A DNA stretch of 64,000 nucleotides from a virus (taxonomy: Duplodnaviria; Caudoviricetes): positions 58,737-122,736 of the IMG/VR virus record IMGVR_UViG_3300025357_000908. One strand, 5' to 3'. This document shows positions 11,577 to 41,733 of the stretch, piece after piece. The notes beneath the pieces are model-generated. The model had not been told where the DNA came from. It worked only from the letters and a program-made list of their open reading frames with translations, and ran no database searches. Position 1 is the first letter of the stretch. Each line of letters starts with the position of its first letter. Made by a program: the position numbers and the translations under genes.

Positions 11577-12170
11577 ATGATTAATAATTTATTTCCTACA
11601 CCTATATACGTTACAGATCTACCATCCAATGTAATAGAAAACGTACAGAGCGAGTTCGATACGGTATATAACGAGTACAAATTAAAAAACGAATTCGGAA
11701 AACAAGAAGGCTGGAAAGGCACTCATCTATTAAGCGACCCAACGTTTAAGAGTAGTTTCATAAAAGAATATAATTTATTATATTTTCAAAACGTGTTAAA
11801 AGATCATGTAACTGTTTATCTTAAGAGTATCAAATACGGTGGTAAGATAGACTATGATATACCTGGATCCTGGATGACATTATCCCGGAAAAATGAATAT
11901 GCATATACCCACACGCATGGTTCGTATGATATATCGGGAGTGTATTATTACAAAACTAATAGTTCAGACGGTGATATATATTTTAGAACCCCTAACCCCT
12001 TACCGTATGCGACATATTGTTATAGCGGGTTAACTACTGATGTATACTACAAGCCAGTAGTTGGCAGGTTAATATTGTTCCCGTCATGGCTTAATCATGG
12101 CACTATACCTAACACTACCGATAATGAAAGGGTAAGTGTATCCTTTAATTTAAGATTTACTAAAAAATAA
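11577..12170 (+). CDS. 2OG-Fe(II) oxygenase-like protein (TIGR02466 type)
   Basis: LFPTPI, SW, HTH...ISGVYY, LILFPSWLNH, RVSVSFN. Confidence 0.85.
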   Translation: MINNLFPTPIYVTDLPSNVIENVQSEFDTVYNEYKLKNEFGKQEGWKGTHLLSDPTFKSSFIKEYNLLYFQNVLKDHVTVYLKSIKYGGKIDYDIPGSWMTLSRKNEYAYTHTHGSYDISGVYYYKTNSSDGDIYFRTPNPLPYATYCYSGLTTDVYYKPVVGRLILFPSWLNHGTIPNTTDNERVSVSFNLRFTKK

Positions 12171-16976: not shown

Positions 16977-17007
16977 ACCCATCAATTTAAATATTGATGG
17001 GTTTTTT
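16977..17007. terminator. Terminator between convergent genes
   Basis: ACCCATCAAT-TTAAAT-ATTGATGGGT followed by a T-run. Confidence 0.8.
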
Positions 17008-17602
17008 ATGTCATACGGAAATTCATAGCAATACTAATTCTATTTTCATTGCTTTTATTTTTTTCTACCATGTGAGCAAGATTTGATCTAAAAACTATTA
17101 CGTCCCCTTCTTGAGGTTGTATGTGGTATGTTTTGAAGTTAGGCATGACGAACTGCTCGGGTGGTGGTAGTGGGAACATATCTTTATCTGCTTCGTGACT
17201 TCTAAAAATAATTTTACCACAGTTTATAGGTATTTTAACATAGTACACTAAACTGAAATGATTAAGTGTATGTACATGGTATTCTTGAAAGTTACCAGGC
17301 TCTGCAATATTTATCCATGCCTCGCTACAAGCCGGTACCCTATTGTTTATACCATACTCTTTAGCAAATTCTTTTACCTCTATTTTACAATCATTAATTA
17401 AATTGTTAAAAAGCGGGTCATTGATTAAATTATACGAAGATAGTGTATTGTACGTGTCTCCAATCCAATCAGAATTTAATTTATTGTTTTTCTTTAACTC
17501 GTATGCTTTAGCAATATAACGCTCGTTATTGTCTTTATGTTCTAACAAGTTTTTCTTGTAAACAAGTTCCGCAAACATTATACCAGTATTAGAGTTGCTC
17601 AT
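17006..17602 (-). CDS. 2OG-Fe(II) oxygenase-like protein (TIGR02466 type)
   Basis: AWIN, HVH...FSLVYY, VFRSNLAH, RISIAMN. Confidence 0.85.
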   Translation of the reverse strand: MSNSNTGIMFAELVYKKNLLEHKDNNERYIAKAYELKKNNKLNSDWIGDTYNTLSSYNLINDPLFNNLINDCKIEVKEFAKEYGINNRVPACSEAWINIAEPGNFQEYHVHTLNHFSLVYYVKIPINCGKIIFRSHEADKDMFPLPPPEQFVMPNFKTYHIQPQEGDVIVFRSNLAHMVEKNKSNENRISIAMNFRMT

Positions 17603-19783: not shown

Positions 19784-20467
19784 ATGCAACTCTCCGATTT
19801 AGTAGGTATATTTCCTAATGCTTTAAGTACGAGTATGTGCGACAGATTACTTGATTGTTACGATAAAGCTATAGCAGGGGGTATTACACATGAAGGTACT
19901 ATAGGAAAAACCGCAGCGGTTACTAACAGAAATATAAAGGATAGTTTAGATTTTGATTTTTATAAAGCCCGTAAAATAATCCCTGATGCAGAGTCTCTAA
20001 CATTCACAATAAGGAACACACTCAATACTCACTTTAAGAAATATTTGCAAAGTCTTCCAAGACAAGATGAGTATGATAGCACTAAAACATTATATAATAG
20101 TGGGGGTTTTTGTTGGCCTATACTTCAAATACAAAGATATAAAAAAGGTGAAGGGCATTATAATGCGTGGCATCATGAAGGGGGTATATTGGGAAATATG
20201 CCCGGGGCAGGAGAAAGACTGTTTGCTTTTTTAACATATTTAGACGATGTTGAAGAAGGTGGTGAAACCGAATTTTTATACACCAATCAAAAAATTAAAC
20301 CAGAAAAAGGCAAAATGATAATCCATCCAGCTGGTTTTCCTTTTGTTCATAAAGGAAACCTTCCAGTGACTTCCGATAAAACAATCCTTATCACCTGGAT
20401 ATGTCAGATGCCCCCGCCCCCTGTGCTACATCCGCACGCAATGAAGCAATCTACTTATTTAGTTTAA
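19784..20467 (+). CDS. 2OG-Fe(II) oxygenase (prolyl-4-hydroxylase-like)
   Basis: IQRY, WHHE, YLDDVEEGGETEF, HKG..P....K. Confidence 0.88.
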   Translation: MQLSDLVGIFPNALSTSMCDRLLDCYDKAIAGGITHEGTIGKTAAVTNRNIKDSLDFDFYKARKIIPDAESLTFTIRNTLNTHFKKYLQSLPRQDEYDSTKTLYNSGGFCWPILQIQRYKKGEGHYNAWHHEGGILGNMPGAGERLFAFLTYLDDVEEGGETEFLYTNQKIKPEKGKMIIHPAGFPFVHKGNLPVTSDKTILITWICQMPPPPVLHPHAMKQSTYLV

Positions 20468-21430: not shown

Positions 21431-22969
21431 ATGCATAAAGTAGTCATAGTTGGTGGTGGTACTGCTGGTATTATGTCAGCAGCAATAGTTAAATCAGCGT
21501 TTAAAGAAAACGTTGAAGTGACTTTAATTTATGACCATAAAAACCCGGGTATTGGAGTAGGGGAAAGCTTAACACCATCATTAAGAACGTTTATGCAACA
21601 AACAGGTCTCAAGGAAGGAGAGCTAATAAGAAATGTTAATGCTACAATTAAAATAGGTTTAAAATTTAAAAACTGGTTAAATGACGGCAAGTATTACTAT
21701 CATGGGTTTAGTCAAATTAGTGTAGCAGCGCATAATAATTTATCTGCAGCATACGCCATAGCTAATAATATATATGACATGGATAATATGTTTCCGAATT
21801 ATTATTTTGAAAACCATTTAGTCCCTAAACATACATCTTTTTTACCTAAACCCGCTGGAGCTATAGAAAACCCCGTACAAGCGGACATATTAAACAGTAC
21901 CACTTTACACTTAGATGCCACGTTACTGAGTTCTTTTTTAATAAGCAAATTTAAAAACAGTCTTAAAATTATCGATGATGTAGTTTTAGACGTAACCCTT
22001 AAAGATGAAAGCAATATTGCTGAGCTTATACTTAAAAATAACGGTAAAATTTCTGGAGATGTTTATATCGATGCAACAGGGTTCAGCCGGGTGTTAATGA
22101 AACGACTAAAAAACAAATGGAACGATATGTCTGATTGGTTACCTATTGATAAATTTATACCTAACCCTGTACCCACCACACACACTGAATTACAACCTTA
22201 TACAACTGCTGAGGCAACTGATAACGGGTGGATACTGCAAGTACCTTTACAAAATAGATGGGGTACTGGCTATTTATATAGTTCTCAGTTTACTTCTGAT
22301 GATGAAGCGTATGAAAAATTTGATAAGTGGTCTAAGTTGACATACGGTAAAAATATAAATAGCAACAAGTCACTGAGTTTTAAAAGTGGCTACTGGGAAG
22401 ACCAGTGGGTAGGTAATTGTTTAGTGGTAGGCTTAGCCAGCGGTTTTGCAGAGCCATTAGAAGCAACAAACATACATCATACTATTAATCAGATTAGTCA
22501 GTTCTGCAAATATTATAACCCTCCAATGTTAGAATGGGATCGAATACCTTATAATAAAATTCAAAAAATTTCATATGAAAACATTTATCTTTATTTGAGA
22601 TTCTGTTATACAACAGGAAGAACAGACTCTGAATTTTGGAAGTACATGACCAGTACCACACCTGTTATAGTAAAACATTTAGATGATAAATTAAAAAGCG
22701 GCTATTTAAACGTACTGGATAACGCAAGCGGTATTATGTTTAACGCTATTAATTTTACTTGTATAGGGCATGGTCTAAATAAGTTTAATGCTGATAAAGT
22801 AAAAGATGCACTTATAAAAAACGGTCAATACACTCGATCTGAAAATTTATACAAAAAGCTTATGCGGGCAAGAGACCTGGAAAAGAATAACGTTATTACC
22901 AGTAATAATTACATTGATGCCATCCGCGGTAGACGTGGAATAGATGGCAAGTATTTTAAAATACTATAG
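21431..22969 (+). CDS. Tryptophan halogenase-like flavoprotein
   Basis: GGGTAG, GVGES, ATIK.G..F.NW, DATGF, GWILQVPL, FAEPLEAT. Confidence 0.88.
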   Translation: MHKVVIVGGGTAGIMSAAIVKSAFKENVEVTLIYDHKNPGIGVGESLTPSLRTFMQQTGLKEGELIRNVNATIKIGLKFKNWLNDGKYYYHGFSQISVAAHNNLSAAYAIANNIYDMDNMFPNYYFENHLVPKHTSFLPKPAGAIENPVQADILNSTTLHLDATLLSSFLISKFKNSLKIIDDVVLDVTLKDESNIAELILKNNGKISGDVYIDATGFSRVLMKRLKNKWNDMSDWLPIDKFIPNPVPTTHTELQPYTTAEATDNGWILQVPLQNRWGTGYLYSSQFTSDDEAYEKFDKWSKLTYGKNINSNKSLSFKSGYWEDQWVGNCLVVGLASGFAEPLEATNIHHTINQISQFCKYYNPPMLEWDRIPYNKIQKISYENIYLYLRFCYTTGRTDSEFWKYMTSTTPVIVKHLDDKLKSGYLNVLDNASGIMFNAINFTCIGHGLNKFNADKVKDALIKNGQYTRSENLYKKLMRARDLEKNNVITSNNYIDAIRGRRGIDGKYFKIL

Positions 22970-23383: not shown

Positions 23384-24613
23384 ATGAAAATATGTGTATT
23401 GGGGGGAGGTACAGTCGGGTCAATGACACTGCTAACTATATTTAGATATATTCCGTTCATTGATTTACGTCAATACCCTCAAGCTCATAAAGACGTTGAC
23501 GTTACATGTATATACGACTCGAATATACCGCACTTACAGGTTGGAGAAAGTGCATCCAGTATTGTAAACAAAACACTCAGTACAGTGTTTAACACCCCTG
23601 TAACGGAATTAATAAAAGAATTTGATGCTACAATTAAAACGGGTACGAGATATTTTTGGACTAAAGCTAATGGAAACGTATTTGATGTACAGGTATTATT
23701 AGATGATAAAACACCAGCAAAGAGCTTACATATCGATAGTAGTGAGTTCTCTAAATTTGTTATAAACAAACTAAAAACATGCAAATCAAATTTTACTACC
23801 ATAGATGATACAATAACCGATGTAACGCAAGATAGTAAATCAGTAAAGTTAAAAGGTAATAAAGGGCTATATGAATTTGATTTTTTAATTGATTGTAGAG
23901 GTACACCGTCAAAAGAAGATTTAGCTAATAAGGACATTTATACCCCACCCAAATTCGAATATGTAAATTCAGTTATACTGTATCCAGAGTATAAAACTTA
24001 TAACGAAAGCTATACATCAGTTCATGTACATGAAAATGGCTGGATGTTTGGTGTACCTTTAAGAAAACGAAAGGGATGGGGGTTTTTGTATAATAATAAT
24101 TTTTTAACTACCGAAGAAGCGATTAAACAATTTTCTACAATAAAAAATATTGATGCGTCTACTCTTAAAAGAATGACATGGAAGCCTTATTATAGAAACA
24201 AAGCATTAGATAATAAAATCCTGTATTTAGGTAGTAAATTATACTTCTTTGACCCGCACGGGGCATTACCATTACATTTTTATAATTCTATTGTTTCGTT
24301 CGTACTTAGAGGAGTACTTTTAAACGTACAAGACTATGATGAATTTGTTAAAAGTTCAAATACATGGTATTTAAAAAATTTACAGTCAATTCAGGATTTA
24401 ATCTCTATAAATTACTGTGGACCTAATGATATTAAAAGTGATTTTTGGGACTACGCTAAATCAAGTTCAACTAAATTTTTAAAAGAATCTACACATTTTA
24501 ATAATGCTATTAAAATGCATAAAAAAGGGTTATTAGCTGGTTACTGGGCATACCCTAAGGAATATTTTTATAGTATTATTAACGGATATAAAATAGATTT
24601 AAGTAATTTTTAA
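23384..24613 (+). CDS. Shorter tryptophan halogenase-like flavoprotein
   Basis: GGGTVG, VGES, DATIK, IDCRG, GWMFGVPL. Confidence 0.8.
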   Translation: MKICVLGGGTVGSMTLLTIFRYIPFIDLRQYPQAHKDVDVTCIYDSNIPHLQVGESASSIVNKTLSTVFNTPVTELIKEFDATIKTGTRYFWTKANGNVFDVQVLLDDKTPAKSLHIDSSEFSKFVINKLKTCKSNFTTIDDTITDVTQDSKSVKLKGNKGLYEFDFLIDCRGTPSKEDLANKDIYTPPKFEYVNSVILYPEYKTYNESYTSVHVHENGWMFGVPLRKRKGWGFLYNNNFLTTEEAIKQFSTIKNIDASTLKRMTWKPYYRNKALDNKILYLGSKLYFFDPHGALPLHFYNSIVSFVLRGVLLNVQDYDEFVKSSNTWYLKNLQSIQDLISINYCGPNDIKSDFWDYAKSSSTKFLKESTHFNNAIKMHKKGLLAGYWAYPKEYFYSIINGYKIDLSNF

Positions 24614-26434: not shown

Positions 26435-27154
26435 ATGAAAGCTGAAACAAGTACATCTTCCGAACAACTCGCTATTAATGCTCCTTTTAAAGGAGAAGTA
26501 CTCGGGTTTTTTCCTATACCGGTAGCTAAATGCAATCTCAGCAAATATTCTGTGTTCAATACAGCCGCTACACAGCTTAAATCCACGAAACTTAAAACAC
26601 ATAATCAAATTTCTTCAAAAAAATTAGCGCATGCGTTTAGTCAAGAAAACTATCTTTTAGAAAAAGAAGAATTTTTTAATATTAAAAATATTATTACTGA
26701 AAAGTGTACGCAGTATTTAAATCAAGTGCTAAATTTCGAAGGCATGGCAAAGGTCACTCAAAGCTGGGTGAATTGTAATGCTCCGGGTGATATAACCCAC
26801 ACCCACAATCATCCTAATTCAGTTGTTTCAGGTGTACTTTACCTGGAAACTGATAGTATCAACGGGAATATAACATTTTATAAACATGCTCAAGACAATG
26901 GTGCTGGCCATTCCTATTCTTTACTACCATCTATAATAGATAAACCTATTAACCCGTCTTTTTTTAAAGCTTTTGCTACAACACAACACACAGTTAATGT
27001 AGTTCCAGGGGATCTTGTCTTGTTTCCTTCTTATCTTTTACATTCAGTGCCTGTTAACAATAGCGCTACAGACAGATGGAGTTTAGCATTCAACTCAATA
27101 CCCACCCCACGTCTGGGAGCAAGTGAACATTTAACAGAATTAAAGCTAAACTAA
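26435..27154 (+). CDS. 2OG-Fe(II) oxygenase-like protein (TIGR02466 type)
   Basis: FFPIPV, QSWVN, HNHPNSVVSGVLY, LFPSYLLH, RWSLAFN. Confidence 0.88.
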   Translation: MKAETSTSSEQLAINAPFKGEVLGFFPIPVAKCNLSKYSVFNTAATQLKSTKLKTHNQISSKKLAHAFSQENYLLEKEEFFNIKNIITEKCTQYLNQVLNFEGMAKVTQSWVNCNAPGDITHTHNHPNSVVSGVLYLETDSINGNITFYKHAQDNGAGHSYSLLPSIIDKPINPSFFKAFATTQHTVNVVPGDLVLFPSYLLHSVPVNNSATDRWSLAFNSIPTPRLGASEHLTELKLN

Positions 27155-27686: not shown

Positions 27687-27880
27687 TTATGTCTGGCAAA
27701 GGCAGTAAACCACGTCCTTTCTCGGTTTCTCAAGATACATACGGGGAAAATTGGGATAATATTTTTAAAAAAAAGCAACCTGACCATGATAAGCACATGG
27801 CTGCTACCGATTGGTCTCAAATGTTAGGAGAGCTACCCGAAGATTACAAAGAAAACAAGAAAAAACGCTCAAAAAACTAA
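27683..27880 (+). CDS. Small hypothetical protein
   Basis: GKGSKPRP...WDNIF motif of the kind seen in small phage proteins. Confidence 0.6.
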   Translation: MIMSGKGSKPRPFSVSQDTYGENWDNIFKKKQPDHDKHMAATDWSQMLGELPEDYKENKKKRSKN

Positions 27881-28722
27881 GCAGGAAGTATGAAACCGGA
27901 CGGGTCATAAACAGCTGGGCACTTAACCCACCCGTCACAGTATACATCTTTAGGGTTTAAGTCAAATAGTGCGTCTGGCCCAAACCAGACGCCTGGTATA
28001 ATTACCTTTTTTTCGGGATAATTTGAAAGATAAGCACCCCACCACGTAAAAGTTGAATTAGAAATAACGAAATTTTGACATAAAGACAGGAACCAGAGTG
28101 CTTTATGTCGTTCGTAGTTTATAAATACAGTATTAGGTAATTTAATATTTTCTCTACACCACTGTAGGTCGTCGCTAACTACAAAAATAGTATCTACTTT
28201 AGGTAACATTTCTGCTGCTTTGTGTATATAGCTTGCAGAAATAACTGGATGACGCCGTGGAAAGTTTAAAAAATCACCCCTTCTTACATTAATTACGGCA
28301 TTTGTTCCGTTTTTTAATTGCGGGTAGTCTTGATATGCCTGGTTAATAAACTCTTCTGTAGGGCCAAATAGCTCTTTTACCTCTTTTGCATAATCTTTAA
28401 AATATTTTTCACTTTCAAAATAACCTCTAAATACGGTTGGTTTAGAAGGGTGCGGAGTGTACTGGTTATAATGATATGTTGCGTGTATAGTGTGTACATT
28501 TTCACCAGGCTCAGGGGATTTATCCAATAAAAACTGTAGTTTTCTATGTACAGTATCATAATAGTCACTCACTGAAGTATCATGGCGGGGTAATACTAAC
28601 TGTCTTTTATGTCTTAACGATTGTGCATATACATTAGCTATTTGAAACATTTGATTGCCTAAACGACCAACCATATGACAGGTAACAAAATTGGGTTCAA
28701 ATTGAGAAGAATATGTACTCAT
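27877..28722 (-). CDS. Alpha-1,2-fucosyltransferase-like (GT11)
   Basis: GRLGNQMFQ, GYFESEKYF, NVRRGD, VSDD..WC, SNSTFTWWGAYL. Confidence 0.9.
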   Translation of the reverse strand: MSTYSSQFEPNFVTCHMVGRLGNQMFQIANVYAQSLRHKRQLVLPRHDTSVSDYYDTVHRKLQFLLDKSPEPGENVHTIHATYHYNQYTPHPSKPTVFRGYFESEKYFKDYAKEVKELFGPTEEFINQAYQDYPQLKNGTNAVINVRRGDFLNFPRRHPVISASYIHKAAEMLPKVDTIFVVSDDLQWCRENIKLPNTVFINYERHKALWFLSLCQNFVISNSTFTWWGAYLSNYPEKKVIIPGVWFGPDALFDLNPKDVYCDGWVKCPAVYDPSGFILPA

Positions 28723-29405
28723 TATACTTTAACAATATTTAATCTCTTATAAGACTCTTCCCAGTGAGTAATACCGGGAGCTCTACCATAAGCATCTAAA
28801 TCACTTGCACCATCTCTCTGTGCAACAGCTAATGGATACACAAAATACTTCTGTATATCTTTTTGTTGGCCTAACCACCCGTCAAGTACTGCATCCTTAG
28901 CTGGAGCATATCTTAGTAGTTTTTTAAAGGCTTTTTTATTATAACCAACAGCATGTGTAGTCAAAACAGTGTTAGCTTTAAGTAGGTTTTCTGAAACTTG
29001 CTGTACAGGGTTATCAAAAACATACCCTCCAAAATAAATCATATCCCAGTCCGGAAAATTTTGTAGTTGATCTAAAGCCTTTTCTACGATCTGTAAACCA
29101 GTCTCCGGTCCCTTATTATAAAACAGTATATCGTCTTCAAAGACTAATATACGCTCAAAGCCGCTTTGATCCATTTTTAAAAATAAATTATATAGTGACT
29201 CGCTAAACGCATAAAAAGATTTAACGAATTCTGGCTCATGAGCAGGAAGTACATAATTTTTTTCTTTAACGTCTATACATTTATGTCTTTCAAAAAAACC
29301 TTCGAGTCCAATCGCTTTAATATCTTTTTCAAGCTGGATTCTACGATCAGTTCGTCGATCGAGATTCATATAATATCCTTTTTGAAAAAATTCGTTAATT
29401 TTCAT
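28722..29405 (-). CDS. Glycosyltransferase family 25-like
   Basis: MNLDRRTDRR, LVFEDD, WDMIYFGG, TTHA. Confidence 0.82.
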   Translation of the reverse strand: MKINEFFQKGYYMNLDRRTDRRIQLEKDIKAIGLEGFFERHKCIDVKEKNYVLPAHEPEFVKSFYAFSESLYNLFLKMDQSGFERILVFEDDILFYNKGPETGLQIVEKALDQLQNFPDWDMIYFGGYVFDNPVQQVSENLLKANTVLTTHAVGYNKKAFKKLLRYAPAKDAVLDGWLGQQKDIQKYFVYPLAVAQRDGASDLDAYGRAPGITHWEESYKRLNIVKV

Positions 29406-29413
29406 TTATATTA

Positions 29414-30595
29414 TCAAGCTGTTATAGTTTGAATAAAGTCTTCCCACATTTGCCCGACTTTATGTGCATTAAATTTGTTTAGTATATAATCTTTACCTCT
29501 ATTTTGTAAATCTGCTTTTACTTCTGGGTTGCTTTCAAGGTAATTAACTGCGTCAGCAATTTTTGCTGTATTGTCTCTAAATATACCCTGTTCATCTTTA
29601 GTTAAAGATTCTTTTTGTATTTTTTCTGGGTCTGCACCGTTTGGAAAATCAATCCATTTGCAGTAACCATCAAAGTTTTCAGGTAATGCTCCTAAAGGAT
29701 ACGTAATTGGTATAGCACCTAATGCAATTGCTTCAGCTACTACACAAGAAAATGTATCTTTATGAACATCTTGGTAAGGAGTGTACAGCGGGTAGATAAA
29801 ATACTCACTTTCAGCTATGTGCGTAAATAATGTTTTTTTATCTACCCCCTCATGCTTATAAAAAAACGAATCCTCGTGAGGGTGAGTACAAAGCAAGTAA
29901 TCAAAAGCGTGTAACTCAGCATCAGGCCAATTCAATTCTCTTAATGTTTGAACCGCTACGTTACCACCTCTTGGCCATGCAGCATGATAAACTACCTTAT
30001 GCTTCTTTTTTACTGGTTTAATATCTAAAACCTCGTTAATAATATCGTCCATTACTGGGTTAGGTATTAGAGTACTAATAGTGTTATCATAGCGACTTTT
30101 TGTAGCTTGAATAGTATGTTGATTCATACTTTTTTCCCAATTAGATATATTAACAAACCCCAGTCTGAGCTTATTGTTTTTTGCGTATGATATTAACTCG
30201 TCAATGCCGTATATCCACTGCATATGGCACCAGTATATTAAAGCTTTACTGACTGTTATCGGTAGTTTAACATAATCATGAAACCAAAGACTACTAATAA
30301 CTATATCAAAATCTTTATTTGCAATATTAGTAAAATCAATGTCTGTGTAATACACACCTCTAACCTTTTTACCAGCATTAAAATACAATCCCTTCTCGGC
30401 ATATGCTTTTTCAAGTTGCGGCTCAAGTTTATCTGATGTAACCACCACTTCATGTCCGAGCAATGCCAGTTGTTCTGCAACAATTATAGTACTACCATCA
30501 GTACCAGAACCACCACCATTACCGTACCGTAACGTGTCTCCGTCTAAATAATTACTTCTACGACTGTTACCTATTAATATAAATGCTATTCTCAT
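29414..30595 (-). CDS. GT-B fold glycosyltransferase (GT4-like)
   Basis: GGSGT....AEQLA..GHEV, DTFSCVVAEAIALG, GALPE. Confidence 0.8.
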   Translation of the reverse strand: MRIAFILIGNSRRSNYLDGDTLRYGNGGGSGTDGSTIIVAEQLALLGHEVVVTSDKLEPQLEKAYAEKGLYFNAGKKVRGVYYTDIDFTNIANKDFDIVISSLWFHDYVKLPITVSKALIYWCHMQWIYGIDELISYAKNNKLRLGFVNISNWEKSMNQHTIQATKSRYDNTISTLIPNPVMDDIINEVLDIKPVKKKHKVVYHAAWPRGGNVAVQTLRELNWPDAELHAFDYLLCTHPHEDSFFYKHEGVDKKTLFTHIAESEYFIYPLYTPYQDVHKDTFSCVVAEAIALGAIPITYPLGALPENFDGYCKWIDFPNGADPEKIQKESLTKDEQGIFRDNTAKIADAVNYLESNPEVKADLQNRGKDYILNKFNAHKVGQMWEDFIQTITA

Positions 30596-30598
30596 AGT

Positions 30599-31870
30599 TT
30601 AACTATTTAAGTTCTTTTCGTATCTTTCGCTCCACCCTTTATTTTTCCAGTGCGCGTACATTACTATTTTATATGGTTTGTCAATACTACGAAAAGTAGC
30701 GTTATGTGTGGTTATTTTAAAACTAATATAATCAGGATCCTTTTCTGTATTAAAATCTTTACGGTATAAACTACCACCACTCTGTGTCTCAATACCAAAT
30801 GTTATAAACTCGAGTGTATCGTTTTCTGGAGCTTGTTTTTTAAAGAATTCAGCATCCCAACTACATGTAAATCTGTGCTCTCTGGATATAAACTGATTAT
30901 CATAATCAATTGGATTTGGTGGTTCTTGTACCTTTAAAGTGTAGTCTTGAATACGACAGTTTTTAAAATCAAACCCACCGTATATTTCATACTCCCGCAA
31001 TGTACGTTCTTTACCTAAACCATACACTCCCATATCAATACCATGTTCTTCCTGTCCGAACAACTGACGAGTCTTATTACGCGCGTATATATCTCTTTCT
31101 CCTGAAGTCTTGCCGGTATATTTTTCTGTACCGTGATCATCCCAGTGCTTTACTCTATAGTTACGTGTGTATTCATGCCAAATGTATTGACGGTACGGGC
31201 TAAAGATGTCATACCCGTTTGTCCATGCTCTCACACTCATTGTAGTTTCCTCTGTATAACCACCGAAATATATGTCCGGATCATATGGTACTTCGGCAAT
31301 AAATTTACCAGGTGCTAAAAAGAAATGACCACTAATGGTACGCGCACGTATAACTTTATTACGTTCTTTATAATCTTGTATATAGTATGGCATGCTCATT
31401 AACAGTTTATCCGAACTAAACTCATACTGAGACATTAAACATGGCCCCATATCTGTTATAGGTTTTTCCGGGTCAAACGGTGTACAATAAGTAGAAATTA
31501 TAGGTTTTTTAGAAACCGCTAACGCTTGCTCATAGTCTTCTAACAACATTTTATCCCAATCTTGAGCAAACCGGTGATGTGAGTCTAATTGTAGAGTGAG
31601 TTCTTCTCCATCATATAGAGAGTTAGTTAAATTACGTGCCCACCCTAACCCCTCACTTTCAGTGTATTTCTTTTTAATAACTCTATAATTTGGTTTACCA
31701 TCATAGTAGTTAGGGTCTTCATCTGGACCGTACTGCCAGCAAATACCAAATGAAAATTGTTCCGGGTTAGCAGCTTTTGCTAACATATCGTTAATTGTTG
31801 GTATTAGTTGCGGGTCTCTATAAGAAGCAAATTGTACAAAAATACGAGGTTTCTTGGTTTTCTTAGCCAT
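30599..31870 (-). CDS. GT60-like polypeptide alpha-GlcNAc transferase
   Basis: IFVQFASYRDP, GLGWAR, QLDSHHRF..DWD, VPYDP..YFGG.EE...SVRAWTNGYD. Confidence 0.85.
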   Translation of the reverse strand: MAKKTKKPRIFVQFASYRDPQLIPTINDMLAKAANPEQFSFGICWQYGPDEDPNYYDGKPNYRVIKKKYTESEGLGWARNLTNSLYDGEELTLQLDSHHRFAQDWDKMLLEDYEQALAVSKKPIISTYCTPFDPEKPITDMGPCLMSQYEFSSDKLLMSMPYYIQDYKERNKVIRARTISGHFFLAPGKFIAEVPYDPDIYFGGYTEETTMSVRAWTNGYDIFSPYRQYIWHEYTRNYRVKHWDDHGTEKYTGKTSGERDIYARNKTRQLFGQEEHGIDMGVYGLGKERTLREYEIYGGFDFKNCRIQDYTLKVQEPPNPIDYDNQFISREHRFTCSWDAEFFKKQAPENDTLEFITFGIETQSGGSLYRKDFNTEKDPDYISFKITTHNATFRSIDKPYKIVMYAHWKNKGWSERYEKNLNS

Positions 31871-31878
31871 AAAAGTAA

Positions 31879-32991
31879 TTACGAGTTGTTTACAGTATTA
31901 CCACTGTTTTCTTTTTCAAAATCATGTAAAGCTGCTGCTATAACCTGGTGCATATCATAGTATTTGTATTCTGCCAATCTACCACCAAATAATACATTAG
32001 GTAATGCTTTAGTAAGCTCTTTGTATTGATTATATATTTTAGTATTTTTTTCATTATTAATCGGATAATAAGGCGTTAGATCTCGTTTCCATTCTTCTGG
32101 ATACTCTCTTGTAATTAATGTATGGGGTACATTTACCCAATCAAAATGCTTATGTTCAATAATACGAGTGTAAGGTATATCTGCAGCTGTGTAATTAATT
32201 AATGCATTGCCTTGATAGTCCTTAACTGGAACTACTTCATGCTCAAATCTTGTAGTTCTATAATCTAAGTCTCCAAACTGGTAACTAAAGTATGCATCAA
32301 TCGGACCAGTATATAGTACTTTCTTAGCTATTTTATCCCAGTTATCTTTATCCGCTAAATAATCGGTATTAAGTTTTACCTCGATACCGGTGAGCATTTT
32401 TTCTATAATTTGTGTATAACCACCTATTGGTATACCCTGGTACGTATCAAAGTAATAATTATCGTCAAAATTAGTTCTTATTGGAATACGTTTAATAATA
32501 AACGTTGGTAACTCTTTAGGATCGGTTTTCCATTGCTTTTGAGTATAACCCTTAATAAACGTCTCGTAAAGCTCTGTACCTATTTCATTGAGACACCACT
32601 CTTCCAGATTTTGCGGGTTATCTATTTTTACTTTACTTGCAAGGAGTTTTTTAATTGCTTCTTCTGGTGTTTTTACACCCCACAGTTGATACAAAGTTAA
32701 CAAATTAATTGGAAACGAATAAAGCTTATCTTTATAACTTACCTTTGGTCTATTAACAAAGCTATTAAATGTAGCAAACTGATTAACATAGTCCCAGATC
32801 CTTTTATTAGATGTGTGAAATATATGCGGACCATATTCATGTACATTAATACCATTAACATTTCTTGTATAAATGTTACCACCTATATGTTCTTTCTTCT
32901 CAAGTACTAAGCATTTTTTACCTGCTTTAGTAGCTTCATGTGCAAAGACTGAACCGTATAAGCCAGATCCAACTATAAGATAATCGTACAT
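31879..32991 (-). CDS. glf: UDP-galactopyranose mutase
   Basis: VGSGLYG, HIGGN, HEYGPHIFHT, YQGIP, PYYP, GRLAEYKYYDM. Confidence 0.96.
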   Translation of the reverse strand: MYDYLIVGSGLYGSVFAHEATKAGKKCLVLEKKEHIGGNIYTRNVNGINVHEYGPHIFHTSNKRIWDYVNQFATFNSFVNRPKVSYKDKLYSFPINLLTLYQLWGVKTPEEAIKKLLASKVKIDNPQNLEEWCLNEIGTELYETFIKGYTQKQWKTDPKELPTFIIKRIPIRTNFDDNYYFDTYQGIPIGGYTQIIEKMLTGIEVKLNTDYLADKDNWDKIAKKVLYTGPIDAYFSYQFGDLDYRTTRFEHEVVPVKDYQGNALINYTAADIPYTRIIEHKHFDWVNVPHTLITREYPEEWKRDLTPYYPINNEKNTKIYNQYKELTKALPNVLFGGRLAEYKYYDMHQVIAAALHDFEKENSGNTVNNS

Positions 32992-32999
32992 TCAGTATT

Positions 33000-33027
33000 A
33001 TTATATAATAATACCGTAGTTATTCAA
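33000..33027 (-). promoter_or_regulatory. Sigma70-like promoter for the glycosylation cluster
   Basis: Minus strand reads TTGAAT-N16-TATAAT just upstream of glf. Confidence 0.5.
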
Positions 33028-33028
33028 C

Positions 33029-34969
33029 TTATGGTCCGTTAATCGGTGTAGATATTGATCCAGCAGAATTATGATGTGTTGTTGGGCTGCTTGCTGCTAC
33101 AGCTGCATTAGGTCCATTTACAGCTGCTGCTGCATTATTTAACGTTGCAGGATCTGCTACTAATTGAAGTGGTAAGTTCTTAAAGTAATGAGTATGTGCT
33201 TGATTGATTACCAGCGTAACCGTATCACCACTATAAATTATACCACCGCCTGGCTTGCTAATTTGAGCACCTGTATCTGTAATTTTAGTAGACTCAGTAA
33301 CTTGAAATTCTACAGGTGCAGTAACATGTTGTAAGTATGTTTCACCTTTAAGATATTGACCACCACCAATAACTACATTTTGACTTACACCCAAATTATC
33401 GTCAATAACTACTTGTTGACGGTTACGCGTTCTTAAAGTCATTATATTAGCTATAACAGACAAATTAGTACCACCATCAATATTGGTATCATCTGAAGAA
33501 GCAATATTGACCTGTTTACCAGCTAATGCCATTATAGTACCACCCATATTAATAGGGCCGGTTGTCTTGATGTCTATACCACCTGAACCTACCAATAAAT
33601 TGTAACGATTACCAGCAGTTACTGTATAATTACCACCAGGCATATCATCAATATGTGTATACTCAATAGCAGGTATTGTAGTAGTAACTTTACCGTTATT
33701 GTTATTATATTGCGTTATTGTTTTTGCAGTACCATTATATCTTGTACTTGCAAATTGATTGAATACTAAACCTACATTGACGAGTTTGTGCTTGGTAATT
33801 GTTTCAATATAATTTCCACCAAAACCGAGTGCAGCTTCAGCTTCTGCTAACGCATTTGCTTGAGTAGCTATTGTACCTGCAAGTTCGTTCTTAGTAGCTG
33901 TACTTTCTGGTAAAGCTAAAAGATTAGCTATAGAAGTATAATAACTAACCCACGTATTCATTGCAGCGGTATTCAAGGAACCAGTTTTAACATAATAGTT
34001 ACCTTGTATGATATTATCAAAATCTCTACCCACCCACAAATTATTGTGTCCTTTTACTGTTTCAAATTTATCTCTAAGTGTTAACAGCTGTAAATTCTCA
34101 GGAGTAAACAAAGAGTTGTATTTGTTATTAAATTCTAAAAACCCTCCAGCAAAGTGTGTAACTTTAAATGATTCTCTATCTGTGGTGTTAATGATTTCTA
34201 TTGCTGCACCGCGCTGATTAACAACCATTTTATTACGGTATGTTTCAGTGTTAACGTCGTTTGCATTTCTGACATCTTTACCCACACTTTCAAACGTTTG
34301 AGGGTAGTCTTGAAATGTACCATCATCGGAACCAAATATACTTGCAAAATCATCTTGACCTAAAGAAGTTCCCATATACACTGGGTAAGTTGGAACCCCA
34401 TCCCTAAAAAATACCCAAACATGAGCACCTACATTAGGTATGGCAAATACACCTTTAGCTGCATTTGAGTACGTCGAAGGTCTGTATTGAGTACCAGTAG
34501 GGTTTATATTATTGGTACCGTTAGCTACAGTATCAGTAAAAGCGTCTGTTAATTTAGTAGCATACTTTTCATAAACAAACCCAGGCTTTTCACCCATACG
34601 CTCGTTGTTTAAATTGAACTGAGTATAAGAGTTTGAAAAATTTGTACCAGATAAACTATAAGGATACGTAGCATCCGAAACGGTAGCTTTGTCTGCGTAT
34701 GCATTATATGTACCAGATGAACTTTCCCCTGCAATAGGCCCACAATACTCTGCCCAAGGTAAACTATCTCTTAAGTCATTAATAATTAAACTTAAGTCTG
34801 AATTTATATTGATACCTGGAAACTTAAAATTTCGATCCTGTTGTGTGATTTCCCATTTACTATATACGCCAGCATTAGCATGCGGTACCCACACTTTTAT
34901 ACGCCCACGATGTTCCGGGTCGTTATTAGCTATTACTATACCAAGATAAATTGACGGAAAAGTTTTCAT
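33029..34969 (-). CDS. Baseplate central spike (gp5/VgrG-like, no lysozyme domain recognised)
   Basis: OB-fold NNDPEHRGRIKVWVP and IPNVGAHVWVFF; beta-helix repeats; C-terminal HTH metal-binding tip motif. Confidence 0.8.
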   Translation of the reverse strand: MKTFPSIYLGIVIANNDPEHRGRIKVWVPHANAGVYSKWEITQQDRNFKFPGININSDLSLIINDLRDSLPWAEYCGPIAGESSSGTYNAYADKATVSDATYPYSLSGTNFSNSYTQFNLNNERMGEKPGFVYEKYATKLTDAFTDTVANGTNNINPTGTQYRPSTYSNAAKGVFAIPNVGAHVWVFFRDGVPTYPVYMGTSLGQDDFASIFGSDDGTFQDYPQTFESVGKDVRNANDVNTETYRNKMVVNQRGAAIEIINTTDRESFKVTHFAGGFLEFNNKYNSLFTPENLQLLTLRDKFETVKGHNNLWVGRDFDNIIQGNYYVKTGSLNTAAMNTWVSYYTSIANLLALPESTATKNELAGTIATQANALAEAEAALGFGGNYIETITKHKLVNVGLVFNQFASTRYNGTAKTITQYNNNNGKVTTTIPAIEYTHIDDMPGGNYTVTAGNRYNLLVGSGGIDIKTTGPINMGGTIMALAGKQVNIASSDDTNIDGGTNLSVIANIMTLRTRNRQQVVIDDNLGVSQNVVIGGGQYLKGETYLQHVTAPVEFQVTESTKITDTGAQISKPGGGIIYSGDTVTLVINQAHTHYFKNLPLQLVADPATLNNAAAAVNGPNAAVAASSPTTHHNSAGSISTPINGP

Positions 34970-39042: not shown

Positions 39043-41733
39043 TTATAATAAACCTCTCGAATATATCATATCTTGTCTATACTTATTACGTTCTATGTAA
39101 GGTACATCTCTACTACCTGTTGTTTGTCCGGATTGTGTAGGTACAACGCTGTTTACAACTGTTGTGCTATTACTATTTGCACTGCTAACTGTATTGGTTG
39201 CTCCTATAGCGCTTTTTTCAATTACTCCGCGTAACTGTATTAACTCGGTTTTTATGTTAGTTAAAAGATCTATTTGAGAATCATAATAACCTTCCGGAAC
39301 GGCTTTTTCTAAATTTGTTTCTGACGTAGTTGTTGCTTTTACTGTAGATAACTTAGCAGCTTCAGTAGTAGTAACCCCGGCTTTTGTTTTTTTCTCAGCT
39401 TTTTGTTTATCATACTGAGCCATTACATCTGGCGGATAAACATTACCAAAGCTAATTGCTTGATCCATTACAGCTATTTGTTTATCTGATAACGGGCCGT
39501 TCGGCTTTACTTCTTCGTTAGCAATTAAAAACCTTGTTGTTTTTGTTGTAAATGAACCGTTAGCAGCTGTTGATGTTGTTGTGGCTGCAGAAGCACCTTT
39601 AGTAGATGCCTGCGCAGTAGTGCTGGTAGTAGCCGCTACAGAAGCTACTAATGCTGCAGAAAAAGCTACCGATTTAGCTAAGCCAGTAATAGATTTAGAT
39701 GCACTTGAAAGTATATCTGAGAATAAGTTATCTCCGGTAGGTGATAAAACGTCTTTAAGATCTCTAAGAACGTTTATAAACATCTTAATTGGATCTAAGT
39801 CAACCTTCACACTACCAAAATCTGACATGCTTTGTTTTATAGCATTTAAAGCTGCAGGTATAGTACTAAAGTCGACCGCTTTATCTGCAATCTTGGCTAA
39901 TTGTTTTAACGGATTATTATCACCCGTAAAAAACCCAACCACACCAGCCATTGCTCCAGAAGCTGAAAAACCTAATAAAGAAGCAGCAATAGCCCCAATA
40001 CCTAATGATACTGAAATTAATTTTGCTCCACTAATTGCTGCTATACGTTCAAGTGTGTCTGCTACAGTAGTTAAAACACCGGAAACAGTATCCCCGATAG
40101 TCTTTATTACATTTTGAACTGTATTCCCTATAACAGATATTATGCCTTTAATACCGTCGATACCCTTTACAAATATTGTACGAATAGTGTCAATTATATT
40201 ACCAGCAAGATCTATAATACCTACTAATACATCGGAAATACCTTGTACAGCTGTTTTTAGAGTTTCTGCAAGATCTTTAAGTACGGGCCCGACTATGTTT
40301 AATGCTTTGATAAGGGCATTACCTAAAAATGTTATAAGTTTATCTATAATAGGTAATAATCCCAATAGTACAGGTTTTAATAAATTAAATGCACCCACTA
40401 ATACGTCTTTAATAATTCTACCGAGTTCAACAAGTTGTGGCACTATTACCTTTACAGCTTCCATTACTGCTTGTACAATTTGCGTTACATAAGGAGCAAT
40501 TGCAATTACTGCTTCTTTAATTAAAGTTACTAATTGCACTACAAACGGAGCTAATTGAATAAGAGCATCCTTAACCGTCTTTACAATCTCTATAATAATA
40601 GGACCAGCAATTTTAGCGAGATTAGTAATAGTGGTTCCTACTTCTTTTATAACAGCAATTACATACGTACCTATTACTTTAGCTAATTCAATAATAGTAG
40701 GTCCAGCCATTTTCAATACTGTACCTATTGCAACACCAATTGCTTTAAGCATATCTGGTATTTTATCTATAGCGTGCATCAGTACTTTACCTATTACATC
40801 AGCTATCCTTATAAAAAACGGCATTGCTGCTTGTATTGCAGGTACCGCCAATCTAAATGCAAGTGCAATACCATTAATTGCAAGTATTATTAAACCTAAC
40901 CCTATAGCAACTTGTGGATTAGCTAACGCAGCTAACCCCGGTCCGAGTACCTTTAAACCAGCACCGATACCGCTAAGAAAATTACCAATACCCTTACCTA
41001 AAGCTTCTATACCAGTACCAACACCTTCTGCAAGCGCTTTAATACCTGTACCTAAACTTTTACCGAAAGCTGCAATTATACCTGTACCCTCTGCAGTTGC
41101 AGATGCACCTTCTGGGCCAGCCTTAGCCTTTTCTTTTTCTTTATCGACTCCAGCAGCAGCACCAGGCGCAAGTATAGATTTTAAAGCATTTAATGCTCCT
41201 GGGTTTATTGAATCAAGAATAACAGGTTGAGGTTTACTCTCTTTTAAAGCTGCTTCTGCTGCAGCAGCGCCCTCGAGATCTGTATTTGGAGCTGTACCAG
41301 TAGCTGTAGAAGCAATATTATCTTTTAATTGAGTAGCTGTTTCAGAAGCTAATTTTTTATTTCTATCAGATGCATCTTTGTCATCTTTAGCTTTACGGTC
41401 TGTATGTTTTTTCTCTTCTTCCTTTGCACCGTAATCTTTATCATACTTTTTAAGAGCATCAATAAAAGTGTTTTGAAAATTTAAACCTATAGACTTGTTT
41501 AAAGTACTAAGTGCATCGCTTTCGGAATTCAAACTCGCAACTATTTTTTCATGACCTTGTATGGTTGCATTCTTTAAAGCTTCAATTTCTGCTGGTAGAA
41601 CGTTTTTAGAAACGTTAAGCATTTCATCTAACCATTTTTGAGGTATTGGGCCAGAATCCTTAGGCTTTAATGTATTCATTAAAGACGCAATAAATCCCGG
41701 ATTGTTAGTTTGGTTGCTGCCCTCGTCAGCCAT
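39043..41733 (-). CDS. Tape-measure-like protein
   Basis: 896 aa with long amphipathic helical repeats and hydrophobic stretches, in the tail operon. Confidence 0.65.
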   Translation of the reverse strand: MADEGSNQTNNPGFIASLMNTLKPKDSGPIPQKWLDEMLNVSKNVLPAEIEALKNATIQGHEKIVASLNSESDALSTLNKSIGLNFQNTFIDALKKYDKDYGAKEEEKKHTDRKAKDDKDASDRNKKLASETATQLKDNIASTATGTAPNTDLEGAAAAEAALKESKPQPVILDSINPGALNALKSILAPGAAAGVDKEKEKAKAGPEGASATAEGTGIIAAFGKSLGTGIKALAEGVGTGIEALGKGIGNFLSGIGAGLKVLGPGLAALANPQVAIGLGLIILAINGIALAFRLAVPAIQAAMPFFIRIADVIGKVLMHAIDKIPDMLKAIGVAIGTVLKMAGPTIIELAKVIGTYVIAVIKEVGTTITNLAKIAGPIIIEIVKTVKDALIQLAPFVVQLVTLIKEAVIAIAPYVTQIVQAVMEAVKVIVPQLVELGRIIKDVLVGAFNLLKPVLLGLLPIIDKLITFLGNALIKALNIVGPVLKDLAETLKTAVQGISDVLVGIIDLAGNIIDTIRTIFVKGIDGIKGIISVIGNTVQNVIKTIGDTVSGVLTTVADTLERIAAISGAKLISVSLGIGAIAASLLGFSASGAMAGVVGFFTGDNNPLKQLAKIADKAVDFSTIPAALNAIKQSMSDFGSVKVDLDPIKMFINVLRDLKDVLSPTGDNLFSDILSSASKSITGLAKSVAFSAALVASVAATTSTTAQASTKGASAATTTSTAANGSFTTKTTRFLIANEEVKPNGPLSDKQIAVMDQAISFGNVYPPDVMAQYDKQKAEKKTKAGVTTTEAAKLSTVKATTTSETNLEKAVPEGYYDSQIDLLTNIKTELIQLRGVIEKSAIGATNTVSSANSNSTTVVNSVVPTQSGQTTGSRDVPYIERNKYRQDMIYSRGLL

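Follow-up and report, generated by a model that had tools for sequence, protein, structure and literature searches.

A five-gene glycosyltransferase operon behind the tail genes of a large T4-like phage is a candidate module for O-glycosylation of the phage's own proteins

The stretch of DNA analysed here (64,000 nucleotides, referred to as the window) derives from an uncultured large T4-like phage, whose record spans 122 kb and is 58% complete. The ORF list and family searches place five genes in a run on the minus strand, at 27877-32991. These are glf, encoding a UDP-galactopyranose mutase (31879-32991, 370 aa), and the genes for a GT60-like (PF11397) GT-A glycosyltransferase (30599-31870, 423 aa), a GT4-like retaining GT-B glycosyltransferase (29414-30595, 393 aa), a GT25-like inverting GT-A glycosyltransferase (28722-29405, 227 aa) and a GT11-like alpha-1,2-fucosyltransferase homologue (27877-28722, 281 aa). 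The genes are separated by 8, 3 and 8 nt along the operon, with the final pair overlapping by 1 nt.

Directly upstream of glf on the same strand is a baseplate central spike or hub gene (33029-34969). Since its 646-residue product contains a Phage_base_V OB domain (8e-10) and the gene trails the tape-measure and baseplate genes, the initial annotation was right to place the operon directly downstream of the spike. The same order, spike followed by glf and GT60, is found in eight related IMG/VR contigs (L005-L011, L025) and is therefore not due to chance. The position behind the tail genes is, however, specific to this clade; in other records the GT60 gene follows a helicase-like gene in one lineage and stands alone in others. 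Nor is the operon just the end of the tail operon, as it appears to have its own promoter. A predicted sigma70-like element, TTGAAT-N16-TATAAT (33000-33027, minus strand), lies within the 37-nt gap between the spike gene and the start of glf, with its -10 box ending 8 nt ahead of the glf ATG, and it is kept in seven related contigs even though the coding sequence on either side has diverged (alignment A4). A different motif, TAAGTA, which is putatively a late motif, is found upstream of 25 of the 129 ORFs, mostly structural genes, but not at this element. The use of a sigma70-like promoter instead suggests that the operon may be expressed before the virion proteins.

The operon is one part of a larger repertoire, with at least 15 glycosyltransferase genes in several clusters in the record, including members of GT2, GT9 and GT10. 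Amongst close relatives its content varies, with an extra FkbM methyltransferase or a gene of unknown function in some and from one to three GT25 copies, as expected of an exposed glycan under diversifying selection.

Glf matches PF03275 (1e-80), NAD_binding_8 (PF13450, 2e-22) and the TIGR00031 equivalog, for which it scores 393.9 bits against a cut-off of 303.75 with residues 1-360 covered. The match is full-length, and the N-terminal FAD-binding Rossmann region carries a GSGLYG motif. By homology it is a UDP-galactopyranose mutase and the predicted source of UDP-galactofuranose. Homologues are present in 17 of 30 related loci, though their place within the cluster varies.

The GT60-like protein belongs to PF11397 (7e-57; 194 bits, cut-off 21), the match being made up of two stretches at profile positions 2-45 and 100-351, and it also matches phrog_24687 (7e-82). 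A DSH motif, D96-S-H98, is invariant across 19 homologues. While the structure model has a pLDDT of only 67 overall, a GT-A core is present and the top folds are the mucin-type polypeptide GalNAc-transferases GalNAc-T1 and GalNAc-T2 (Foldseek 5e-8; VIA Z 16.0 over 249 residues), with other GT-A enzymes nearly tied. There is an extra C-terminal beta domain at about residues 329-423. Amongst the protist GT60 alpha-GlcNAc-transferases, Dictyostelium Gnt1 acts on the hydroxyproline of Skp1, and Dictyostelium Gnt2 and Trypanosoma cruzi OGNT act on Thr/Ser of mucin-like repeats. To our knowledge every characterised GT60 enzyme uses a polypeptide acceptor (CAZy; Pfam PF11397). We therefore propose the GT60-like protein as the initiating polypeptide HexNAc transferase, which by analogy to its family would transfer alpha-GlcNAc from UDP-GlcNAc to Thr or Ser. 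A search with two peptide patterns across 185,579 prokaryote species, one genome each, yielded only two loci of this subfamily, each on a short MAG contig and one of them nearly identical to a contig from a virus, so the close subfamily seems to be essentially absent from cellular genomes.

The GT4-like protein has no Pfam or NCBIfam match and only a weak match to a group-1 glycosyltransferase profile (E 0.23). Its AF2 model (pLDDT 91.5) has a GT-B fold, with the retaining GT4 enzymes MshA, PimA, BshA and PglA found by Foldseek at about 1e-12 to 1e-10 (MshA: 3e-12, TM about 0.6), and on this fold we class it as a probable retaining GT-B glycosyltransferase, GT4-like. Within this subfamily it is GT60's fixed partner, lying alongside it at 24 of 30 related loci, immediately next to it and in the same orientation at nearly all of them, but it is found in only one of ten independently sampled PF11397 records. 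For the GT25-like protein the copy in the window falls below threshold for PF01755 (1e-4; 22.6 bits, cut-off 24), and the assignment is to the family as a whole, in which 16 of 19 members match, the best at 2e-10. The family profile is nearer to the collagen galactosyltransferase COLGALT1 (4e-10) and mimivirus R655 (3e-8) than to the bacterial LOS enzymes (bacterial GT25, 0.009). The protein contains the FEDD motif that is invariant in the family, and is probably a beta-Gal or beta-Glc transferase; relatives carry from none to three copies. The GT11-like protein matches PF01531 (6e-26; 91.8 bits, cut-off 23.9) and phrog_2644 (2e-52). Its NVRRGDF motif keeps the RRGD, the Arg-Arg-x-Asp core of HxRRxD, with the usual His replaced by Asn. 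We propose it as an alpha-1,2-fucose capping enzyme with GDP-fucose as the predicted donor. The family calls of the initial annotation were borne out for Glf (TIGR00031), GT60 (PF11397), GT25 (the PF01755 family) and GT11 (PF01531), and its GT4-like call agrees with the fold.

The acceptors first suggested fared less well. These were the serines of GXS fibres, hydroxyprolines made by a P4H-like oxygenase encoded at 19784 and a P/T-rich protein at 49236. A lack of association between GT60 and GXS fibres had been named in advance as evidence against the idea, and no association was found: PF11397 is present in just 2 of 22 large GXS-fibre records, neither of them near-complete, and no more than 4 of 29 GT60 records contain a GXS run, those 4 being closely related. 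Nor did comparison of the GT60 records reveal any association of the module with collagen-like repeats. Hydroxyproline also lacked support; PF13640 was detected in 1 of 27 GT60 records, by a search of limited sensitivity that missed a partial homologue in L010, and the PF13640 gene at 19784 lies about 11 kb from the operon on the opposite strand. The protein at 49236 is rich in Pro, Ala, Gly and Gln with few Thr and has no (Thr-Pro)n linker.

Runs encoding (Thr-Pro)x4.5, on the other hand, are found in 15 of 27 GT60-bearing IMG/VR records and in none of the 22 records of comparable size that served as controls (Fisher 2e-5), where the contigs are fragmentary, the controls a convenience set and kinship amongst records only partly removed. 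At least six records have the run no more than about 6 kb from GT60. In two loci (L015 and L034) the next gene upstream of GT60 encodes a protein of 1300-1400 aa full of TPTPT linkers, and in a third (L024) such a protein, in the same size range, is one small ORF away. In the reverse direction, and subject to the same limits of sampling, PF11397 was found in 8 of 32 records picked solely for a TP run; this was not significant with all genome sizes included (p = 0.17), but for estimated genomes of at least 150 kb the gene was present in 7 of 15 TP-run records and in 2 of 20 controls (p = 0.02). The association extends over loci of 29-54% GC and to PF11397 genes whose partner genes differ. This co-occurrence points to direct mucin-type glycosylation of Thr rather than to a Skp1-like hydroxyproline pathway. 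In the phage studied here the most likely acceptor, as judged from sequence, would be an InlB-repeat protein with (Thr-Pro)n linkers. Its gene (genome positions 6-1304, minus strand) is outside the window, about 85 kb from the operon, and adjoins collagen-like and baseplate genes.

A similar arrangement exists in a cultured phage. When a phage collection was searched with tblastn, GT60-like genes were found only in four Xanthomonas/Stenotrophomonas phages (XacN1, Xoo-sp13, CM1 and RAS14). ORF334 of XacN1 is 33% identical to the GT60-like protein of the window over 97% of its length. It lies no more than about 9 kb from the giant ORF325, which comes after the baseplate wedge genes and has a TP run inside it. 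XacN1 differs in that the partner of its GT60-like gene is a carbamoyltransferase rather than a GT4-like enzyme, and glf, GT25 and GT11 are missing from the neighbourhood. At least two glycoprotein bands of XacN1 virions are Schiff-positive (Yoshikawa et al, 2018; PMC5852040), though the bands were not assigned to proteins and the connection with ORF334 is a suggestion of those authors.

None of the five operon proteins has a predicted transmembrane segment and all look soluble. In the 122-kb record, 58% of the genome, we found no Wzx-, Wzy- or WecA-like polytopic protein; a crude hydropathy scan of all ORFs of at least 60 aa gave more than three TM-like segments only for the tape-measure protein. 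The initiating phosphoglycosyltransferase, flippase and polymerase of a lipid-carrier Wzx/Wzy or ABC-type pathway are thus not seen. Because the enzymes look soluble, because neither these components nor a route to a hydroxylated base is found, because the GT60 subfamily is nearly absent from cells and because virion proteins of XacN1 are Schiff-positive, protein O-glycosylation is the best reading. We put at about 0.5 the probability that the operon is a cytoplasmic, lipid-carrier-independent module that attaches a short oligosaccharide of variable make-up to Ser/Thr residues in proteins of the phage itself, probably those on the virion surface. The GT60-like enzyme would put the first HexNAc, alpha-GlcNAc by family analogy, on Thr/Ser in extended Thr/Pro-rich linkers; the GT4-like enzyme would then attach an alpha-linked sugar and the GT25-like enzyme a beta-hexose, before the GT11-like enzyme capped the chain with alpha-1,2-fucose. 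Glf would provide UDP-galactofuranose for one of these steps. What we observed is gene content, folds, motifs, synteny and the statistics of co-occurrence, while this initiator-extender-capper order, the donor sugars, the acceptor and any role of the glycan, for example in shielding, stability or adhesion, are inferred. The interpretation in the initial annotation is partly supported, with its named acceptors replaced.

Working at the cytoplasmic face of infected cells, the transferases might instead remodel the host envelope by extending intermediates of LPS/LOS core, O-antigen or capsule, which would be a means, for example, of blocking superinfection or keeping progeny off debris. GT4, GT25 and GT11 enzymes, like those of GT2, GT9 and GT10 encoded elsewhere in the record, are typical of LPS/LOS synthesis; soluble transferases can use lipid-linked intermediates that host machinery later exports, and the sigma70-like promoter would permit early expression. 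It is also the usual reading for glycosyltransferase-rich T4-like cyanophages as given in PMC12801897, where the at least ten transferases of the cyanomyoviruses S-SCSM2R, S-SCSM1 and P-SSM2, GT10, GT11, GT25 and GT2 included, are taken as host-surface modifiers. Those are likewise large aquatic T4-like phages with many transferases of shared families, but GT60 and Glf are not amongst the transferases named for them in that account. We regard envelope remodelling as possible but rather doubtful, as the four glycosyltransferases of the operon match no NCBIfam bacterial family, the close GT60 subfamily was confined in the species-genome collection to the two MAG contigs, and no ligase, like no initiating transferase, flippase or polymerase, was found in the 122 kb. 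It would also leave both the co-occurrence of GT60 with TP linkers and the adjacency of their genes unexplained, and we know of no GT60 enzyme with a lipid or polysaccharide acceptor.

Alternatively, the targets could be host proteins, modified for takeover or anti-defence, or non-structural phage proteins, or the product could be a free or small-molecule glycoconjugate. The promoter type, unlike that of the structural genes, and the location of the cluster away from structural genes in several lineages would fit such targets. We think them unlikely given the glycoproteins in XacN1 virions, the giant TP-linker proteins that adjoin the cluster in some lineages and the baseplate genes that do so in others, and the variable cluster content, which suggests an exposed structure. 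A glycan on a hydroxylated base of DNA, like those of T4, RB69/DLP3 and the 5mYOX-linked pathways, is very improbable. Phage GT-A and GT-B enzymes can make di- and trisaccharides on DNA (bioRxiv 10.1101/2023.12.21.572611; PMC13326640), and the record is incomplete. A hydroxylated base would call for a ThyA homologue or for a C5-methyltransferase plus a 5mYOX/TET enzyme. However, no thymidylate-synthase homologue (PF00303) was found in the 122-kb, 58%-complete record; a scan of four 2OG oxygenases of the window gave matches to PF13640 or PF13759 and to no Tet/JBP family, and GT60, GT25, GT11 and Glf are not families of known DNA glycosyltransferases.

The proposed protein O-glycosylation can be compared with known systems. 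The phage protein resembles the protist GT60 enzymes in its strong PF11397 match, in having a GT-A fold with a DxH-type motif, in its predicted action in a compartment free of lipid carriers and, as for the mucin-type members, in an association with Thr/Pro-rich repeats; it differs in being viral and in its extra C-terminal beta domain. The likeness to the eukaryotic Skp1 chain drawn by the initial annotation survives for the GT60 family, and an alpha-1,2-fucose added later as a cap would make the product look like the core of the Skp1 glycan, but the likeness does not hold for the remainder of the pathway (P4H, Gnt1, PgtA, AgtA). The phage GT60 has no link to a prolyl hydroxylase, and its companions for Gal and Fuc are different enzymes: extension in Dictyostelium is by PgtA (GT2/GT74) and AgtA (GT77), whereas the phage has GT4-, GT25- and GT11-like enzymes. 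Mimivirus L230, R699 and R655 glycosylate collagen-like or fibril proteins on hydroxylysine in collagen repeats (PMC9546862). These enzymes and those of chlorovirus capsid glycosylation are similar to the phage module in being virus-encoded cytoplasmic transferases acting on the virus's own structural proteins, although they serve eukaryotic viruses and the phage module is not associated with collagen-like or GXS repeats. In mycobacteriophages, O-glycosylation of structural proteins by soluble transferases of the same phage has been proposed or shown (Freeman et al, 2023, as described in PMC12619734). As far as that description goes, the transferases are of other families, the hosts are Actinobacteria, the evidence is experimental where ours is from genes, and the sugars go onto capsid and tail-tube subunits at their C-termini, not onto TP linkers as proposed here. 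Both systems nevertheless have soluble, phage-encoded transferases, and a methyltransferase accompanies the operon in some relatives of this phage.

The five open reading frames of the glycosylation operon lie on the minus strand from 32991 to 27877, with successive gaps of 8, 3 and 8 nt and a 1-nt overlap between the last pair. The first, glf, encodes a UDP-galactopyranose mutase (TIGR00031 equivalog, 394 bits against a cut-off of 303.75; PF03275, 1e-80). It is followed by the GT60-like gene, which matches PF11397 (the ‘GlcNAc’ family, 7e-57) and the phage family phrog_24687 (7e-82), and whose product has a D-S-H motif that is invariant across 19 homologues. The third gene product has no Pfam match and is placed as GT4-like through the GT-B fold of its AlphaFold model (pLDDT 91.5), which resembles the retaining GT4 enzymes MshA, PimA, BshA and PglA (E 1e-10 to 3e-12). 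For the fourth, GT25-like, gene the window copy alone is below threshold; 16 of 19 family members match PF01755, and a profile of the family hits bacterial GT25 (0.009) more weakly than it does mimivirus R655 (3e-8) and human COLGALT1, a collagen galactosyltransferase (4e-10). The fifth gene is GT11-like (6e-26), and its product retains RRGD, the core of the GDP-fucose motif. Taking Pfam, TIGR00031, PHROGs, model fold and family-profile matches together, all five family calls of the initial annotation therefore hold.

The GT60 profile found nothing among PDB sequences at E values up to 1. The model of the GT60-like protein is of moderate quality (pLDDT 67), with both the N-terminal GT-A half and the C-terminal beta domain confident. 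Its top fold matches are the mucin-type polypeptide GalNAc-transferases (Foldseek 5e-8; VIA Z 16.0 over 249 residues), with other GT-A enzymes within 1–2 Z units of this match. The modelled fold is consistent with a protein acceptor, without being decisive.

By its sequence, the source phage is a large myovirus of the T4-like kind; its genes include those for a tail sheath (46236–48587), a tape-measure protein (39043–41733) and a spike that carries a Phage_base_V domain (33029–34969). The window is the final 64 kb of a 122,736-bp record with an estimated completeness of 58% (CheckV). No close cultured relative was found, the best matches of the sheath being to cyanophages and one pelagiphage at ~35% identity across the C-terminal 40%. 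At least ten additional transferases are encoded outside the window, between 20124 and 57200 of the genome (loci L035 and L036), comprising several GT2-like, GT9-like, a second GT11, a GT10 fucosyltransferase-like, a GT7C/GT2-like and one GT4-like enzyme. This brings the whole record to at least 15 glycosyltransferase genes, so the operon makes up a single module in a far larger glycan toolkit. The count is comparable to or greater than that of S-SCSM2R, whose 13 transferases have been termed a possible record among marine phages (PMC12801897). Two flavoenzymes of the tryptophan-halogenase family (21431–22969 and 23384–24613, plus strand; PF04820, 2e-86 and 1e-27) are convergent with the transferase operon.

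The 37 nt that separate the spike gene from glf contain a sigma70-like element, TTGAAT-N16-TATAAT, which ends 8 nt before the ATG; this element is kept in seven relatives in which the flanking coding sequence diverges. Elsewhere in the record the hexamer TAAGTA is found no more than 45 nt upstream of 25 of the 129 open reading frames against ~1.7 expected, mostly before structural genes and at distances of 6–44 nt, most often 11–22 nt (for example in the regions upstream of window positions 39043, 44307, 48644, 49236, 50390 and 61038). The T4 late motif TATAAATA shows no enrichment, and TAAGTA is a candidate late-promoter element distinct from it. No TAAGTA precedes the glf operon. With a conserved sigma70-like promoter of its own and without this hexamer, the operon is not merely the end of the late tail operon; we infer that it is a separate transcription unit whose expression may precede that of the tail genes. 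Generic scans for promoters and terminators performed no better than shuffles, and some read-through from the spike gene may occur, since the search for a terminator gave no convincing candidate.

Searching IMG/VR with the GT60 protein gave 30 loci at 52–83% identity. The order spike, glf, GT60, GT4-like, GT25, GT11 is common to eight close relatives, which vary in the number of GT25 paralogues (one to three) or in having an additional unknown gene. The tandem GT25-like paralogues, two or three in number and 49–61% identical to the window copy, are at 12500–14556 of L005, 12424–13769 of L007 and 12454–13799 of L025; in other relatives the inserted unknown gene (c14) encodes 234–245 residues. 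The putative glycan-extension step turns over rapidly. In the more distant loci, with GC contents of 29–54%, the GT60 and GT4-like genes remain adjacent and co-oriented; 24 of the 30 loci have a GT4-like gene next to GT60, with GT25, GT11, glf, an FkbM methyltransferase and a DUF3431 gene variably present. The FkbM-type gene (PF05050, 3e-10), which belongs to another lineage, lies between the GT4-like and GT25-like genes at 4087–4791 of L017 and has homologues in L014, L019, L020, L021 and L030, suggests sugar O-methylation. The placement of the cluster after the tail operon, to which the initial annotation drew attention, is a feature of the present clade only: the five genes follow the spike in the eight close relatives, but in other lineages the flanks are wholly different. 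Nor is the GT60 and GT4-like pair universal. The GT4-like partner was present in just one of ten independently sampled PF11397 records, so the pair defines a close subfamily rather than phage GT60 genes generally.

Which molecule the pathway acts on is suggested by the neighbours of GT60 in one of these lineages. In L015, L024 and L034 a protein of 1300–1400 residues is encoded directly upstream of GT60 (in L024, one small reading frame away), and consists of globular segments joined by long TPTPTATPxP linkers, with up to 21% Thr and 18% Pro. These giant proteins have no PHROGs annotation. In a comparison made on fragmentary records against a convenience sample (22 GXS-selected records, ~2.3 Mb), and with kinship broken only in part by diverse flanks and GC, a (Thr-Pro)x4.5 coding run was present in 15 of 27 GT60 records and in none of the 22 (Fisher 2e-5), or in 15 of 21 against 0 of 22 outside the window's own clade (Fisher 1e-6). 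In at least six records the run is within ~6 kb of GT60. The reverse test, subject to the same limits of sampling and kinship, found PF11397 in 8 of 32 records chosen solely for a (Thr-Pro)x5.5 run (p = 0.17 with no size filter); where the estimated genome was at least 150 kb, PF11397 was in 7 of 15 of these and in 2 of 20 comparison records (p = 0.02). The source phage has a Thr-Pro-linker protein of its own, 57–58 kb before the window start (genome 6–1304, minus strand, locus L037; 432 aa), with two InlB B-repeat domains and a long poly-Pro tail besides the linkers. Its gene is next to those of a 928-aa canonical collagen triple-helix protein (genome 1317–4103, minus strand; PF01391, 9e-82) and a 785-aa PKD-domain protein.

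Among cultured phages, a GT60-like gene was found in four alone, XacN1, Xoo-sp13, CM1 and RAS14, which infect Xanthomonas or Stenotrophomonas (~33% identity over 97% of the length). In XacN1 the gene is ORF334, ~9 kb from the giant ORF325 (3,313 aa; AP018399.1, 203370–213311), which comes after the baseplate wedge genes and has a Thr-Pro run near its C-terminus. Staining of XacN1 virions by Yoshikawa et al gave at least two glycoprotein bands that were Schiff-positive; the authors attributed them to ORF328 and ORF334, as a suggestion without further test (PMC5852040). At 219791–223508 of AP018399.1, ORF334 is paired with a gene for a 765-aa carbamoyltransferase.

The acceptors initially proposed fared less well. 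The case for the GXS fibres had been staked beforehand on their co-occurrence with GT60, and on this they are rejected. Eight Gly-X-Ser/Thr triplets in a row, searched for as a DNA pattern, were present in only 4 of 29 GT60 records, all close kin, and absent from GT60 records of 381 kb (79% complete) and 136 kb. GYS-type fibres occur widely (at least 120 stretches in IMG/VR); PF11397 is present in 2 of 22 such records of at least 40 kb and absent from those rated 99% and 100% complete. Hydroxyproline made by the P4H-like oxygenase was abandoned as well, PF13640 being present in one of 27 GT60 records, and the supposedly P/T-rich protein at 49236 proved to be rich in Pro, Ala, Gly and Gln, with no Thr-Pro linker. 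Generic collagen-like repeats were also rejected, being found in one of 25 further GT60 records and in neither XacN1 nor Xoo-sp13. The single instance, at the end of the contig of L026 (bases 9–1430, minus strand), is a proline-free protein of Gly-Thr/Ile-Gln and Gly-Thr-Thr triplets.

We consider the most likely function, with a probability of about 0.5, to be cytoplasmic O-glycosylation of the phage's own Thr/Pro-linker proteins, which are probably on the virion surface. The GT60-like enzyme would initiate the glycan, the GT4-like, GT25-like and GT11-like enzymes would extend and cap it, and Glf would supply UDP-galactofuranose; such is the order of steps, with its sugars and acceptor, that we infer. 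It is very improbable that the transferases modify DNA. Known DNA glycan pathways require a thymidylate-synthase homologue or a Tet/JBP-type oxygenase (bioRxiv 10.1101/2023.12.21.572611; PMC13326640), but the record, 58% complete by estimate, has no thymidylate-synthase homologue, and the four 2OG-Fe(II) oxygenases of the window (11577–12170; 17006–17602, minus strand; 19784–20467; 26435–27154) belong to PF13759 in three cases and PF13640 in one, with no match to a Tet/JBP family. Remodelling of the host envelope is a more credible alternative, though still an unlikely one: none of the five enzymes has a transmembrane segment, no Wzx/Wzy/WecA-like polytopic protein is encoded within the 122 kb, and the curated bacterial families of NCBIfam include no match to any of the four transferases. 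Other protein or small-molecule targets seem rather improbable.

Glycosylation of the Thr/Pro linkers would work much as protist mucin-type GT60 glycosylation and mycobacteriophage virion glycosylation do, though with other enzymes and another type of acceptor, and would not be of the Skp1 hydroxyproline type. Mucin-like O-glycosylation chemistry is known from protists. To our knowledge, phage-encoded virion glycosylation is proven solely in mycobacteriophages and hinted at in XacN1, and our literature search, which extended to phage O-glycoproteomics, found no description of GT60 enzymes in phage protein glycosylation. A broader proposal, which we make tentatively and at somewhat less than even odds, is that large environmental phages run a virus-specific, cytoplasmic mucin-type O-glycosylation. 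A protist-type GT60 would place HexNAc on the Thr of (Thr-Pro)n in fibres or adhesins, and lineage-specific cassettes, here the GT4-like, GT25-like and GT11-like enzymes with Glf, would elaborate it into a variable glycan containing fucose and galactofuranose. The resulting ‘phage glycocalyx’ may tune adhesion, stability or recognition. If GT60-type enzymes do glycosylate Thr/Pro linkers, mucin-like O-glycosylation would be widespread in aquatic jumbo and T4-like phages, with a bearing on adsorption and particle stability, on particle stickiness and carbon export, on antigenicity and on how the eukaryotic GT60/GT27 enzymes originated in evolution. Glyco-engineering in bacteria would then also gain a soluble, lipid-independent O-glycosylation toolkit.

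The GT60 family is abundant in metagenomes, with 5,985 proteins at E ≤ 1e-10. Among the genomes of 185,579 prokaryote species, a scan for close relatives found them on two short MAG contigs only, one of these being near-identical to a viral contig. This 4.7-kb contig (L282; JBILNK010000340.1, from a ‘Planctomycetota’ MAG) has 99–100% protein identity to the IMG/VR viral contig L019, including a helicase-like gene and GT60, and is probably a phage contig that was binned into a bacterial MAG.
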